From the NCBI GenBank assembly GCA_030648055.1, contig JAUSHI010000007.1, positions 1 to 47,620 on the forward strand: a stretch of 47,620 bases of DNA, given 5' to 3'. The notes below the pieces were generated by a model. That model saw only the letters and a list, made by a program, of their open reading frames with translations. It searched no databases and had not been told where the DNA came from. Below are positions 24,352-46,391 of this stretch, piece after piece (positions within the stretch are counted from its first letter, which is position 1; the number at the start of each line of letters is the position of its first letter). The position numbers were made by a program, and so were the translations under genes. The DNA is from a bacterium. GTDB taxonomy: Bacteria > Patescibacteriota > Minisyncoccia > Sungbacterales > SURF-37.

Positions 24352-24385
24352 AGCCAACTAACAAGCGACCGCTTGCTAGTTGGCT
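24352..24385 (+). repeat. AAGCGACCGCTT palindrome copy 1 (variant arms)
   Basis: AGCCAACTAACAAGCG-AC-CGCTTGCTAGTTGGCT. Confidence 0.85.
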
Positions 24386-26316: not shown

Positions 26317-26356
26317 AAAAAATAAGTAGGCAAAATAAACAAACAAGTAGCCAAAT

Positions 26357-26402
26357 CAAAAGTTCCAAATAAAAAGCGACCGCTTGCTATTTGGAACTTT
26401 TG
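26357..26402 (+). repeat. AAGCGACCGCTT palindrome copy 2
   Basis: CAAAAGTTCCAAATAAAAAGCG-AC-CGCTTGCTATTTGGAACTTTTG. Confidence 0.9.
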
Positions 26403-26423
26403 AAAAACGAACCGAATCAACAC

Positions 26424-28145
26424 ATGACTCAATCTCAAGCACTATCAATCTTGCAGACTGGCGCGAATGTTTTTTTAACCGGCGAACCCGGATCCGGCAA
26501 AACGCATACGATTAACGAATATGTGGCATATTTGCGCGCACGGGGCATTGAGTCGGCAATAACGGCTTCAACCGGTATTGCCGCTACGCACATAGGCGGA
26601 ATGACCATTCACTCGTGGAGCGGCATAGGAATTAAAACGAAGCTGGATAAATATGAACTTGATGCAATAGCATCGCGAGAATATGTCACAAAGCGCGTCC
26701 GACGCACCAAAATCCTTATAATAGACGAAGTATCAATGCTTCCCCCCGAAACACTCTCCATGGTTGATGCAGTATGCCGCGAAATCAAACAAAATACGGA
26801 GCCTTTCGGGGGTATTCAGATCGTTTTGGTCGGTGACTTTTTCCAACTGCCACCGATTATGAAAATAGAAACGAAAAACAGCCGGCAAACCGCGCTCATT
26901 GAAGAATCGTCTGACCGTTTTGCGTATGATTCTCCCGCGTGGAAGCGAACAAGCCCGGTTATCTGTTATCTTGCCGAACAGTATCGCCAAGACGACAATA
27001 ATTTTCTTGCCGTGCTCTCGGCAATTCGGCACAATGTCTTTGGCGATGATCACTTACGCCATATTAAAACTAGAAAAATTGAGGCCCATACCGCGCCTAA
27101 CGGCGCGCCGAAACTTTTTTCTCACAATGCCGACGTGGATCGCATTAATAACGAAATATTCGCCAAACTTTCTAGCGAGCCGCATTCATTTGCCATGTCA
27201 TCACAGGGCCCAAGCATGCTCACCGCAACACTTAAGAGAGGTTGCCTTTCGCCCGAGGCACTTCATCTTAAGGTCGGAGCGGCAGTGATGTTCACAAAAA
27301 ACAATCCAAAAGAGGGCTTTGTAAACGGCACACTTGGCACTATTGAAGGATTTAATAAATATAGCAGTTACCCAATCGTTAAGACCAGAAGCGGAGTGCA
27401 AATTGAAGTTGAGCCAATGGACTGGATGATGGAAGAGGGTGGCAAGATTCACGCACGAATAACGCAACTGCCACTTCGCCTTGCTTGGGCGATTACAGTG
27501 CACAAGAGCCAAGGAATGAGCTTAGACGCGGCGGTGATGGATTTAAGCGACACGTTTGAATTCGGTCAGGGCTATGTCGCGCTCTCGCGCGTCAGGCGAC
27601 TTTCCGGCCTGTATCTTCTCGGCTGGAATGAACTCGCGTTTCAAGTGCACCCGGAAATATTGGCCAAAGACGAAGCGTTTCGCTCGGCCTCGGGCGACGC
27701 CGAAACGGTTTTTGGGAAAATTCCGCCGACTGAACTTGATAAAATGCACAAAAATTTCATCATTGCGTGTGGAGGGAATATTATTAAATTAGCCGGCATT
27801 GACACAAAAAATTGCCCCATCTACGAAAAGACGGAAGAGAATCTTGATACATATAACAAAACCCATGCGCTCTGGAACGAGGGAAAAACCATTTTGCAGA
27901 TCGCTGAAATACGCGGATTGAAAGAGCGGACCATTTTAAGTCACGTCGAGGAGCTTGTTAAAAAAAGGAAAATTAGCCCTGCCGATATTTTAGGCCTTGT
28001 AACGCCCGCGCTCTCTAATGCGCTTCCTAAAATCCATACCGCGTTTAGAGAACTTGGCACCGATAAATTATGGCCTGTTTTTGAAAAATTTAATGGCGCT
28101 TATTCATACGACGATCTCCGAATAGCCCGAATGATGCTCAACTAA
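26424..28145 (+). CDS. PIF1-like SF1B DNA helicase with C-terminal HTH
   Basis: GEPGSGKT, IIDEVSM, LVGDFFQLPP, HKSQGMSLD, GQGYVALSR; C-terminal QIAEIRGLKERTILSH; start ATG 26424. Confidence 0.9.
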   Translation: MTQSQALSILQTGANVFLTGEPGSGKTHTINEYVAYLRARGIESAITASTGIAATHIGGMTIHSWSGIGIKTKLDKYELDAIASREYVTKRVRRTKILIIDEVSMLPPETLSMVDAVCREIKQNTEPFGGIQIVLVGDFFQLPPIMKIETKNSRQTALIEESSDRFAYDSPAWKRTSPVICYLAEQYRQDDNNFLAVLSAIRHNVFGDDHLRHIKTRKIEAHTAPNGAPKLFSHNADVDRINNEIFAKLSSEPHSFAMSSQGPSMLTATLKRGCLSPEALHLKVGAAVMFTKNNPKEGFVNGTLGTIEGFNKYSSYPIVKTRSGVQIEVEPMDWMMEEGGKIHARITQLPLRLAWAITVHKSQGMSLDAAVMDLSDTFEFGQGYVALSRVRRLSGLYLLGWNELAFQVHPEILAKDEAFRSASGDAETVFGKIPPTELDKMHKNFIIACGGNIIKLAGIDTKNCPIYEKTEENLDTYNKTHALWNEGKTILQIAEIRGLKERTILSHVEELVKKRKISPADILGLVTPALSNALPKIHTAFRELGTDKLWPVFEKFNGAYSYDDLRIARMMLN

Positions 28146-28192
28146 CAATTAGCATGAAGAACAAAAAGAAAATAAAACAAACAGCCAAACCA

Positions 28193-28234
28193 AAAGTTCC
28201 AAATAACAAGCGACCGCTTGTTATTTGGAACTTT
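28193..28234 (+). repeat. AAGCGACCGCTT palindrome copy 3
   Basis: perfect 20-bp arms AAAGTTCCAAATAACAAGCG-AC-CGCTTGTTATTTGGAACTTT. Confidence 0.95.
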
Positions 28235-28252
28235 CAATAAACGAATAACTAC

Positions 28253-44089: not shown

Positions 44090-45295
44090 TTATTGCCACG
44101 AAAGCCGCAAGTTCGCTTCGGCGCGCACTTTTTTCCACGGCGTTTTGTCACCCGAAAAATATCCGGCAAGCGCGATCATTAAAGCGTTGTCTCCGGTTAA
44201 ATGGCGGGAGGGGAGATACAACTCCAAATTAGGAATGTTATTTTTAACCGCGGCTACAAGTGTTTCACGCAATTTTGTGTTTGCCGCGACACCACCTCCA
44301 AGAATCACACTTTTTACTCTATATTTTTTCGCGGCACGAATCGTTTTGACTACAAGCACTTCAACAACCGCATCCTGAAATTCTTTCGCGATTAACGGCC
44401 GAAGTTCTGCAAGAGAATATTTCTTCTCTAAATCACGAAGCAAATAAAGTGTCGCGGTTTTAAGGCCGGAAAAAGAAAAATCAAAATCACCGGAATTTAT
44501 CATCGGACGCGGAAGTTTGATTTTTATTTTTTTGTTTTGTTTCACGTTCTCTGCAAGCCGCGAAACAATCGGCCCGCCCGGATAACCGAGCTTCATCATC
44601 TTGGCTACTTTATCAAACGCTTCTCCAGCGGCGTCGTCACGTGTCTCGCCGATAATTTTATAATTGCCAAATTTCTTCATTAAAACTAACTCTGTGTGCC
44701 CCCCACTAACTATGAGTGCCAGTGTTGGCAGTTTCATTGTACGCAAATGAAACCCGTGTTTCTGAATTTGCGTTTCACCAAGCATTACAGTATACACGTG
44801 CCCCTCCAGATGGTTAACGGGAGTAACCGGCTTATTCCATATATATGAAAGAGCTCGCGCGAAATTAACGCCCGCCCAAAGCGCGGGCTCAAGACCGGGA
44901 CCAACCGTTACGGCAAGCGCGTCAATTTGCGGAGGCACGATTTTCGGAATTTCTTTTAAAAACCTCTTGATTAGTTCAGCCTCGCGTTCAAAAATTTCAT
45001 GCAGGATTCTAATTTGTAACGAAGAAAATTTTTGCTCTGTTTTTTGTTTTTTCGCGTGAAACAATTTAGCTTCTTTCAGCGCACTTTTTAAAACGGGCAC
45101 GAGATTTTTCTGGTGTTCCCGCTTTGCCAAATTCGGAACCACTCCACCGAATTTCCGATGAATAGGAACCTGTGACAACACAACATTGGACAAAATTTTA
45201 ATATCAGCCGCTTGCACCGAGCGTTTTAACGGACTCATTTCAATAACCGCAACCGCGGTTTCGTCGCAACTTGTCTCTATTCCTAAAATAACCAT
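44090..45295 (-). CDS. tsaD: tRNA N6-adenosine threonylcarbamoyltransferase
   Basis: LGIETSCDET, PVNHLEGH, LIVSGGHT, DDAAGEAFDK, FSFSGLK, GGVAAN, TGDNALMI. Confidence 0.97.
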   Translation of the reverse strand: MVILGIETSCDETAVAVIEMSPLKRSVQAADIKILSNVVLSQVPIHRKFGGVVPNLAKREHQKNLVPVLKSALKEAKLFHAKKQKTEQKFSSLQIRILHEIFEREAELIKRFLKEIPKIVPPQIDALAVTVGPGLEPALWAGVNFARALSYIWNKPVTPVNHLEGHVYTVMLGETQIQKHGFHLRTMKLPTLALIVSGGHTELVLMKKFGNYKIIGETRDDAAGEAFDKVAKMMKLGYPGGPIVSRLAENVKQNKKIKIKLPRPMINSGDFDFSFSGLKTATLYLLRDLEKKYSLAELRPLIAKEFQDAVVEVLVVKTIRAAKKYRVKSVILGGGVAANTKLRETLVAAVKNNIPNLELYLPSRHLTGDNALMIALAGYFSGDKTPWKKVRAEANLRLSWQ

Positions 45296-45317: not shown

Positions 45318-45398
45318 GAGCAAAATTACTACTGCCGAATCCTGCCCCGTACTAAAACTAAGTTTTTGGTTCGGAGTCTCTATTCCCAAGATTCGCAT
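45318..45398 (-). pseudogene. relic duplicate of a tsaD 5' end interrupted by a palindrome
   Basis: MRILGIET-[PNQKLSFSTGQ]-DSAVVILL vs tsaD MVILGIETSCDETAVAVI. Confidence 0.55.
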
Positions 45399-45442: not shown

Positions 45443-45484
45443 AATCTTCCAAATAGCAAGCGACCGCTTGTTATTTGGAAGATT
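45443..45484 (+). repeat. AAGCGACCGCTT palindrome copy 4
   Basis: AATCTTCCAAATAGCAAGCG-AC-CGCTTGTTATTTGGAAGATT (one G-T pair). Confidence 0.95.
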
Positions 45485-45485
45485 T

Positions 45486-46037
45486 CTAAATAAGCTGGAA
45501 TTTCTTCTTCAAATGAAGCTCATTATCAATATGAAACGCTTCTATAAAACGCACATAGCGGCGCACATCATATAATTCTATAACAAAATCAATCTCTTTC
45601 TTGCACTCATAAGGATGAACAAACACGCTCTTTTGCAACTCCTGCAACCCGAGCTGCCGCAATTTTATTCGCAAAACATCGCGCAATCTTTTTTGCGTTT
45701 CAGGAATATCAAAAAGAATAACACGCCATTTTTGATCCCACCGCGACGGCTTCGGTATCTTCATGTCATCAAACTTATAGCGTAACGCTGTTTTTTGTCC
45801 TTCTCTGTTAAGAACGACAGAAACAGTACCATCCTTATTTTCTTTATAAGATACGAGCTTAGATTCATATAACCGCCGTATTGCTCGGTGTAGCTCCCGA
45901 TTGTCTATTTCTCGCCATTCCCGCGCAACCGCTTTCAAAACTCGTCTATAACGATCTGGTGGCCCTGACAAACTTAAGCCTACGCCTCCAAGCAAAAGAA
46001 GCAAAGTTTTTTGTGTAACAACCCCTAATGTCCGCAT
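45486..46037 (-). CDS. PaaX-like protein: wHTH plus Cas2/VapD-like domain
   Basis: LHRAIRRLYESKLV..LNREG wHTH; WDQKWRVILFDIPE..RDVLR..L..LG..LQKSVFV; start ATG 46037. Confidence 0.85.
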   Translation of the reverse strand: MRTLGVVTQKTLLLLLGGVGLSLSGPPDRYRRVLKAVAREWREIDNRELHRAIRRLYESKLVSYKENKDGTVSVVLNREGQKTALRYKFDDMKIPKPSRWDQKWRVILFDIPETQKRLRDVLRIKLRQLGLQELQKSVFVHPYECKKEIDFVIELYDVRRYVRFIEAFHIDNELHLKKKFQLI

Positions 46038-46056
46038 ATTAAAGTAGTATATTATT

Positions 46057-46100
46057 AAATGTTCCAAATAGAAAGCGACCGCTTTCTATTTGGAACATTT
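46057..46100 (+). repeat. AAGCGACCGCTT palindrome copy 5
   Basis: perfect 21-bp arms AAATGTTCCAAATAGAAAGCG-AC-CGCTTTCTATTTGGAACATTT. Confidence 0.95.
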
Positions 46101-46314: not shown

Positions 46315-46391
46315 GGCCCTATCGTCTAGCCTGGTTAGGACACAAGCTTTTCAAGCTTGGTACCCGGGTTCAAATCCCGGTGGGGCCACCA
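46315..46391 (+). tRNA. tRNA-Glu(TTC) with encoded CCA
   Basis: GGCCCTA/TGGGGCC acceptor, CAAGC-TTTTCAA-GCTTG anticodon arm, ends ACCA. Confidence 0.95.

Follow-up and report, generated by a model that had tools for sequence, protein, structure and literature searches.

A short PaaX-type gene between two long palindromes: a probable autorepressor and its operators in a Sungbacterales genome

Why should one small bacterial gene stand exactly between two copies of a long palindrome? The question is raised by a stretch of 47,620 nucleotides (nt; hereafter the window, contig C2:1-47620) of the Sungbacterales genome G000, which amounts to 614.5 kb in 9 contigs, has a GC content of 45% and is 85% complete. 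In the window, a minus-strand open reading frame (ORF) of 183 amino acids (aa) is the sole item between the fourth and fifth copies of a palindrome of 42-44 base pairs (bp) with a 36-bp core, GTTCC...GGAAC, with gaps of 1 nt at the stop codon and of 19 nt at the ATG. An earlier note on this DNA had described the bracket, whose coordinates we confirm, and had suggested a minimal mobile or self-regulating unit whose protein binds or cuts the palindrome and could mobilise other flanked genes such as a helicase. Our analysis leads to a narrower answer: the gene probably encodes a PaaX-like autorepressor whose operators, each of about 40 bp, bracket it and have been inherited in place with it beside tsaD. 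The self-regulating part of the earlier suggestion is thereby retained, as the upstream site appears to be set against the -10 box of a leaderless promoter, while the mobile part finds no support, the locus being syntenic and to all appearances vertical. We found no description of this protein family or of the bracket layout in the literature searched.

The gene and its two palindromes form a real, conserved unit. We examined 80 homologous loci from named Paceibacteria lineages (Sungbacteria, Giovannonibacteria, Yonathbacteria, Zambryskibacteria and others), retrieved by means of a 12-sequence alignment, and counted palindromes of at least 11 pairs within 120 nt upstream or 90 nt downstream. 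Under this strict criterion a palindrome was present upstream in 34, downstream in 30 and on both sides in 22 of the 80 loci, against 2 of 68 upstream and 3 of 68 downstream for control genes of those loci (Fisher p 4e-9 and 7e-7, respectively), and palindromes were 20-fold denser in the flanks (3.3 per kb) than elsewhere (0.16 per kb). Flanking by related palindromes, which the earlier note had proposed to look for in homologues and whose absence it had listed as one of three refuting conditions, is thus found family-wide. Homologues occur in 32 of 40 related genomes, with up to 10 per genome (genomes under 1 Mb). The whole family comprises 3240 clusters at 50% identity, nearly all of 180-200 aa, whose members are named 'hypothetical', 'PaaX' or 'Cas2' in public records.

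The palindrome is very probably the binding site of the protein that it brackets, because it is enriched family-wide, because the two sites of a locus match each other, because the arms co-vary with the protein, and because orthologue and site occur together. Upstream and downstream half-sites of one locus are 0.91 identical over their inner 16 nt, compared with 0.48 for different loci. When the sites are aligned on their dyad, the whole family shares one centre, RC(G/T)A|T(C/A)GY, in which position -3 is C in 98%; a distal CAAWTA box at -13 to -8 is semi-conserved, and the remaining arm positions are variable. The more identical two proteins are in their N-terminal, winged-helix half, the more similar are the arms of their sites, whose likeness climbs from 0.33 to 0.66 (Mantel r 0.31-0.32, p <= 0.0005) and correlates less with the C-terminal half, so that the co-evolution of protein and repeat that the earlier note wished to see checked is indeed observed. 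Centre type showed no correlation with the N-terminal domain (r 0.02) and a marginal one with the C-terminal domain (r 0.07, p 0.07). With no significant correlation of this kind, the idea that the Cas2-like half reads the centre was dropped as a result, and survives only in the sense that a conserved domain would match a conserved centre.

Site and orthologue also go together between genomes. In the window the pattern TTCCAAATANNAAGCGACCGCTTNNTATTTGGAA was found at 4 places (8 matches, counting both strands), and it matched none of 100 shuffles. The family pattern CAAMTANNAAGCGRYCGCTTNNTAKTTG was scanned in 41 genomes with the reversed pattern as control; it is multi-copy in only three of them, G000 (8 copies), G005 (10) and G038 (4), and these are exactly the genomes that have an orthologue of >=67% identity. 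In 35 of the 41 genomes it has zero copies, and the reversed pattern also gave zero. A metagenome scan for the palindrome returned two unrelated contigs and nothing else.

Domain matches, a structural model and fold comparison show the predicted product to be a short PaaX-type protein, that is, a winged helix and a Cas2-like PaaX_M domain without the PaaX effector domain. The Pfam entry PF20803 (PaaX_M, 'PaaX central Cas2-like domain') is matched with E 1e-21 and 77 bits against a cut-off of 24. The AlphaFold2 (AF2) model built from 28 homologues (predicted local distance difference test score, pLDDT, 88) has a winged helix at residues ~1-95, with a predicted recognition helix at 46-58 and wing at 62-76, and then a beta-alpha-beta-beta-alpha-beta fold at residues ~98-180, the Cas2-like PaaX_M domain, the chain ending at 183. 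The closest fold in the PDB is that of E. coli PaaX (8a39; E 3e-5, 186 columns), with Cas2 proteins and MarR-type winged helices next in rank. These results uphold the identity, a winged helix-turn-helix joined to a PaaX/Cas2-like domain, that the earlier note had given the protein. The single sequence found no match in the PDB, and a profile search of the PDB gave weak MarR-type matches. The N-terminal half has no Pfam match to PF07848, yet the model shows a winged helix there; nor is there a Pfam match to the effector domain PaaX_C (PF08223), which E. coli PaaX itself has, carrying all three PaaX domains in Pfam. The PaaX equivalog model TIGR02277 scores 26.3 bits, far below its cut-off of 264.55. 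Cas2 models also stay below cut-off (PF09827, 19.9 vs 23.8 bits; TIGR01573, 22.1 vs 24.5), and a search for defence and phage families gave weak Cas2 matches and nothing else. Profile comparison (hhalign, probability 83%) aligns WDQKWRVILFDIPE with WDGKWLLLLSEGLD of E. coli PaaX, the motifs being WDxKW...FDIPE in the family and WDGKW...SEGLD in E. coli PaaX; residues W100, W104, F109, D110, P112, R119, S137 and P142 are unchanged across the 28 homologues. In the alignment of these homologues the ATG equivalent to 46037 is the one used, which makes the longer TTG start at 46067 unlikely.

The position of the upstream palindrome, which abuts the candidate -10 box and covers the spacer and the -35 region, indicates the classic placement of a repressor site on a predicted leaderless promoter. 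In homologous loci its centre lies at a median of 47 nt from the start codon (interquartile range 42-52). A -10-like box between palindrome and ATG, defined by agreement with TATAAT at >=5 of 6 positions with A2 and T6 required, was found in 21 of 30 loci and was perfect in 9, compared with 16% and 1.8% of random windows, and it most often ends 6-7 nt ahead of the ATG. A Shine-Dalgarno-like sequence is present in 5 of the 30 loci. Since the window gene has none and its box lies close to the ATG, its mRNA would be leaderless or nearly so. A generic promoter scan gave no match at the window gene because there is no good -35. At loci L061-L140, genes seem to be transcribed as leaderless mRNAs, with TATAAT near the ATG and rare Shine-Dalgarno sequences.

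PaaX is a phenylacetyl-CoA-responsive repressor of the paa genes in E. coli and Pseudomonas (PDB 8A39, 3L09), and the sensing of phenylacetyl-CoA is ascribed to its C-terminal PaaX_C domain. The window protein resembles it in having an N-terminal winged helix followed by PaaX_M with the WDxKW motif. The PaaX operator of E. coli, TGATTC-N27-GAATCA, is a very long palindromic site of 39 bp, and PaaX represses its own promoter through steric hindrance (PMC9493321). From this geometry a 40-bp site with distal boxes is what would be expected for a PaaX-type dimer; the sites predicted here, with their 42-44 bp and distal boxes ~30 bp apart, are of this kind, and the upstream one is positioned for the same self-repression. 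We propose that the protein dimerises through its Cas2-like domain, as PaaX does, so that two winged helices would read the distal arm boxes while the Cas2-like dimer would cover the conserved centre. When occupied, the upstream site would keep RNA polymerase off the -35 region of the leaderless promoter, a negative autoregulation comparable to that of PaaX at Px. The differences from PaaX are also clear. In addition to the missing PaaX_C and PF07848 matches and the low TIGR02277 score, no phenylacetate genes lie nearby, the neighbours being tsaD, tRNA-Glu and an aldehyde dehydrogenase gene; the palindrome here is continuous and near-perfect, has a family-wide conserved centre and recurs right after the stop codon; and the paralogues, up to 10 per genome, have a site family each.

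As judged by gene order, the locus is vertically fixed across genera. In G005, a member of another genus, the gene still stands between tsaD and tRNA-Glu and still has a palindrome at either end, the regulator protein being 74% and TsaD 61% identical to those of G000. Contigs L182 and L183, whose protein is 76% identical, carry an aldehyde dehydrogenase gene, a small gene, tsaD and the regulator gene, with both palindromes present, their arms retained (TTCCAACTA) and their centre changed to GCCATGGC. Because aldehyde dehydrogenase, tsaD, the gene and tRNA-Glu are syntenic in other genera, the locus appears to have been inherited vertically, an outcome that the earlier note had named in advance among its three refuting conditions and that speaks against mobility of the gene-palindrome unit; the two of these conditions examined here, flanking and vertical fixation, point in opposite ways.

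The same relatives cast light on the downstream site, which in orthologous loci lies 19-21 nt before the ATG of tsaD. In the L182 orthologue tsaD starts MRILGIETSCDE, 21 nt past the palindrome, and in G005 the downstream palindrome runs into a TGTATAAT box that ends 15 nt before the tsaD ATG. In the window, a relic of an ancestral start encoding MRILGIET lies 103 nt upstream of the live start at 45295, with an insert of ~80 nt, containing an imperfect hairpin, between the two; tsaD appears to have had its 5' end broken up by this insert and to have been rescued by a duplicated start. The relic being the very start that is used in L182, the downstream site of this orthogroup would originally have been a site in front of tsaD. 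Once some 20 nt ahead of that gene, it may have coupled tsaD to the protein or blocked read-through, and a loop of ~615 bp between it and the upstream site may form as well. The earlier note had objected that autoregulation does not explain the downstream copy; a site preceding tsaD in orthologues explains it in part for this locus, an explanation that does not carry over cleanly to the family. Family-wide, the downstream site is tied to the stop codon of the regulator (-11 to +54 nt), and no conserved downstream partner gene was found, the 41 homologous loci showing assorted unrelated housekeeping genes.

A role of the downstream site in looping or as a roadblock is possible. The lac O1-O2 and gal OE-OI systems are those of repressors with auxiliary operators downstream of the promoter, which act by DNA looping. 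The present loci likewise have two identical sites a few hundred bp apart (604-740 bp), one of them overlapping the promoter, but the second site here lies past the end of the gene, and no helical phasing was seen in the spacing of the two.

Several observations weigh against an autorepressor with bracketing operators. Under the strict criterion 38 of the 80 homologous loci are palindrome-free, and the protein has no recognisable effector domain, hence no evident signal to respond to. On the downstream side, 7 of 28 loci have a convergent next gene and the other 21 a co-directional one, and a -10-like box follows the downstream palindrome in only 11 of 30. Symmetric changes of the two arms exceed the expectation from shuffles in G000 (8 vs 3.1), G008 (11 vs 3.9) and G005 (5 vs 2.3) and are strongest at the outermost, non-conserved positions; independent reading of half-sites by a dimer does not predict such compensated changes, which could stem from passive mismatch correction in extruded hairpins or from selection for a cruciform. 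Finally, there are solitary copies of the palindrome, away from the gene. They are mostly at non-orthologous positions in G000 and G005, their number within one genus ranges from none (G001 and G011, which have the bracket only) to ~6 (G008), and those after ftsZ and ftsQ lie in convergent spacers, where they cannot serve as operators.

To our knowledge, very few regulators can be recognised in Patescibacteria, and hardly any experimental genetics exists for them. If the bracketed gene is an autorepressor, each member of the family would display its predicted site twice in the genome, so that specificity pairs could be read directly, which would offer a route into the transcription control of uncultivated bacteria, their apparent leaderless promoters included. 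The family would also provide a natural series for how a dimer of winged-helix and Cas2-fold domains reads a 40-bp site. The fast turnover of solitary copies and the compensated arm changes raise the question whether binding sites can spread like selfish elements.

PaaX_M paralogues in G000 number five. The one on contig C5 has its own palindrome, CCGTTTAATATGCTATAGCATATTAAACGG, 4 nt past its stop codon and a degraded copy ahead of its start; that on C8 has a third type of palindrome, with eight copies upstream and two downstream, and a pseudogene of it on C9 has eight upstream copies too. No flanking palindrome was seen at the C3 paralogue. The site arrays at C8:3552-4918 and C9:4002-4618 consist of copies of a 34-bp imperfect palindrome separated by a few recurring modules of 30, 46, 50, 53, 60 and 76 nt. 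A CRISPR-like reading of these arrays was rejected, as the 'spacers' are themselves repeated modules; the arrangement resembles iterons or a centromere rather than a CRISPR array. In a more distant subfamily (L017-L030 and the C8 paralogue) the N terminus has 20-25 hydrophobic residues, for example AVLAVLAVSAVVLAAATFPGAAIALRPF, which looks like a membrane anchor rather than helix 1 of a winged helix.

The coordinates of the features in the window are collected in Table 1. Outside it, the genome has four more copies of the palindrome, at C5:107393, C5:205334, C5:205459 and C7:34177. Solitary copies evidently turn over quickly. They precede rny, PIF1 and ymdB, follow ftsZ and ftsQ, and in one case stand in a divergent spacer; copies occur in co-directional, divergent and convergent spacers alike. 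On the autorepressor reading they would be recent, lineage-specific additions, some operator-like in their placement and some incapable of such a role. After ftsQ, a new-type copy stands between the live 3' end of the gene and a decayed copy of that end; this decayed copy is more similar to the G005 sequence than to the live version and is followed by an old-type (CAACTAAC) copy. This spacer on C5 looks like a palindrome-bearing insertion with a gene-end duplication of ~33 nt. The interval C5:205300-205500 contains two family copies 125 nt apart with the decayed ftsQ 3' end between them. In G011, the ftsQ spacer is occupied by a bracketed PaaX-like paralogue.

Table 1. Features of the bracketed locus and other copies of the palindrome family in the window
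Feature	Position	Strand	Remarks
Gene for short PaaX-type protein, 183 aa	45486..46037	-	Start ATG at 46037, stop codon at 45486-45488; Pfam PF20803, AF2 model, fold search, alignment
Palindrome copy 4, downstream site; AATCTTCCAAATAGCAAGCG-AC-CGCTTGTTATTTGGAAGATT	45443..45484	.	1 nt from stop; 153 nt before present tsaD start
Palindrome copy 5, upstream site; AAATGTTCCAAATAGAAAGCG-AC-CGCTTTCTATTTGGAACATTT	46057..46100	.	19 nt from ATG; proposed operator over -35 region and spacer
Candidate -10 box TATACT	46046..46051	-	Ends 8 nt before ATG
Putative relic of ancestral tsaD start, ATGCGAATCTTGGGAATAGAGAC, MRILGIET	45375..45398	-	44 nt past copy 4; matches L182 start
tsaD, conserved downstream neighbour	44090..45295	-	Kept in relatives
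tRNA-Glu, conserved divergent neighbour	46315..46391	+	Kept in relatives
Palindrome family copy 1, variant with CCAACTAAC arms	24352..24385	.	Arm type is that of relatives
Palindrome family copy 2, rny-PIF1 spacer	26358..26402	.	Within 80-nt direct repeat 26332-26411
PIF1-type helicase with C-terminal HTH_40 domain, accessory gene	26424..28145	+	Pfam; inserted between rny and ymdB
Palindrome family copy 3, PIF1-ymdB spacer	28192..28235	.	Within second 80-nt direct repeat copy, 28166-28245

Two of the solitary copies flank the gene for a PIF1-type helicase, which the earlier note had supposed to be mobilised by the palindromes. PIF1 is a true insertion: in 8 other genomes rny directly neighbours ymdB, and in a ninth the two are separated by a different insert, of 0.9 kb, so that their spacer, on this comparison, is a recurrent insertion point. 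The 0.9-kb insert, in G015 (L142), appears to encode a membrane protein. In G000 the helicase gene is flanked by 80-nt direct repeats that are 85% identical and contain copies 2 and 3. In the relative L189 (YmdB 81% identical) the rny-ymdB spacer is empty, 14 nt long and without a palindrome, and in L188 (YmdB 80% identical) it is filled, with PIF1 (74%) before ymdB and a 55-nt spacer, again without one. Because empty and filled sites are both palindrome-free, the palindromes would have joined these spacers after the arrival of the helicase and not been the mechanism of its insertion. Empty sites retaining one palindrome, which the earlier note had proposed to look for, are thus not what L189 shows, and mobilisation of the helicase is not borne out. 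None of the PIF1 homologues in 12 other genomes is flanked by this type of site, and the reading of PIF1 as a palindrome-bounded cassette was rejected. A PIF1/HTH_40 helicase is found in 13 of the 41 related genomes, in various places, and ymdB was not found among 11 other genomes of the same family.

Of the alternatives, a rather unlikely one, compatible with autoregulation, is that the palindromes are protein-dependent, bidirectional transcription roadblocks or insulators in a genome apparently lacking Rho, the bracket serving to insulate the regulator. Most copies do lie 1-55 nt past a stop codon, convergent spacers included, but in a compact genome spacers are short, and any intergenic element will be near a stop codon. 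The palindromes would form stems without a following U tract and so would not be intrinsic terminators, and no Rho RNA-binding domain was detected in the genome, whose completeness of 85% leaves its absence unproven. In one orthologous spacer a palindrome in G005 corresponds to an ordinary GC-rich hairpin in G000. The enrichment in convergent spacers is non-significant, however (6 of 19 copies from four site families in G000, against 16% of spacers genome-wide, p 0.07), a generic terminator needs no multiple specificities, and the genome has far more transcription units than copies.

Also unlikely is a selfish pair akin to REP elements and RAYT genes, in which the protein would be a structure-specific nuclease or nickase that recognises the hairpin or cruciform and spreads or maintains its copies. 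REP/REPIN elements and RAYT (TnpA-REP) genes were reportedly described by Nunvar and co-workers in 2010 and by Bertels and Rainey in 2011. Vertical inheritance would be no obstacle to such a pair, since the gene would then act as a domesticated driver with its own elements on either side, in the manner of RAYT genes, and both systems have a vertically inherited single gene flanked by a co-varying palindromic element whose intergenic copies differ in number between close relatives. The turnover of solitary copies is fast (within one genus, 2 bracket sites in G001 vs ~8 in G008). Relatives are palindrome-free at rny/PIF1/ymdB, the new-type palindrome by ftsQ is flanked by live and decayed 3' ends, and 80-nt modules are duplicated around PIF1. 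The several paralogues per genome, each with its palindrome family, and the excess of compensated arm changes over shuffles fit as well, although passive hairpin mismatch correction can yield such changes. On the other side, the upstream site is set precisely against the -10 box, which is a regulatory signature. The copies number 2-10 per genome, as opposed to tens to hundreds of REP elements, their centres follow no strand rule, and no insertion with clean target-site duplications was found. The protein, moreover, has a winged helix and a Cas2 fold and is not an HUH/Y1 transposase. The absence of cas1, array and transposase that the earlier note had reported for the window holds more widely: neither Cas1 nor a Y1 transposase of the REP-associated, HUH type (PF01797) is detectable in the whole of G000, and there is no tandem or CRISPR array in the window.

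A further point in favour of such a pair is D110, which occupies the catalytic position of Cas2 and is Asp in 28 of 28 homologues. We regard it as distinctly improbable that the winged helix steers the Cas2-fold domain, with its invariant Asp, onto the dyad of the hairpin or cruciform to nick, maintain or propagate the element. If that were true, gene-palindrome units would be vertically inherited replicators like REPIN/RAYT systems, built on a Cas2 fold, and they might be kin to the ancestor from which the CRISPR adaptation module arose. With CRISPR Cas2 the protein shares a ferredoxin-like fold and an acidic residue ending strand 1, and the 36-bp core bears a superficial likeness to a CRISPR repeat. 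Unlike CRISPR Cas2, it scores below the Cas2 cut-offs, and it has neither cas1 in its genome nor an array in the window. Since E. coli PaaX, a plain repressor, has Glu at the position of D110, the invariant Asp is weak evidence for catalysis.

That the palindromes act as RNA hairpins in stability, processing or termination, either with no part played by the protein or as targets of a Cas2/VapD-like RNase, is very improbable. If transcribed, they would form hairpins of high stability (-23 to -28 kcal/mol, z -6 to -11), and compensated arm changes would be in keeping with this. The 150 arm mismatches in 91 palindromes (36 G.T, 24 A.C and 90 other) showed no clear signal of a G.U wobble bias, though, and the AC centre follows no rule of orientation relative to transcription, the two sites that flank the G005 orthologue having it in opposite directions; 8 of 9 copies carry GT on the leading strand, but these copies are non-independent. 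Many family members have a loop of 0 nt (CGATCG, CTATAG), typical of duplex sites rather than of hairpins in RNA. Taken together, the missing U tract, the absence of a G.U excess, the centre in either orientation and the 0-nt loops favour a duplex DNA site. In addition, the upstream copy precedes the -10 box and would therefore be outside the transcript of the gene. An integron-like or dif-like system, with the palindromes serving as recombination sites for the capture of PIF1 and other genes, is barely credible: the 85%-identical direct repeats around the PIF1 insertion do contain the palindrome, but the palindromes came later than PIF1 (L188, L189), PIF1 homologues in 12 other genomes have no site of this type beside them, the bracketed gene is syntenic across genera, and there is no recombinase among the ORFs examined beside the sites, no genome search for recombinases having been made.

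Two further kinds of repeat were observed in passing. There are five copies of a dispersed motif of ~30 nt, GTACYGCGACCGCGGYTTCTAACGGGATT, all of them on the minus strand (C2:48351, 69290 and 83659; C5:77204 and 238491), one copy lying between parA and parB and another where G005 has the family palindrome. Another palindrome family (core TTCTCAAGAA / TTCTGCAGAA; L182:4142-4173, L154, L158 and L160) is located, in relatives, after tsaD and beside PIF1 homologues, which suggests that different palindrome families populate like kinds of spacer.

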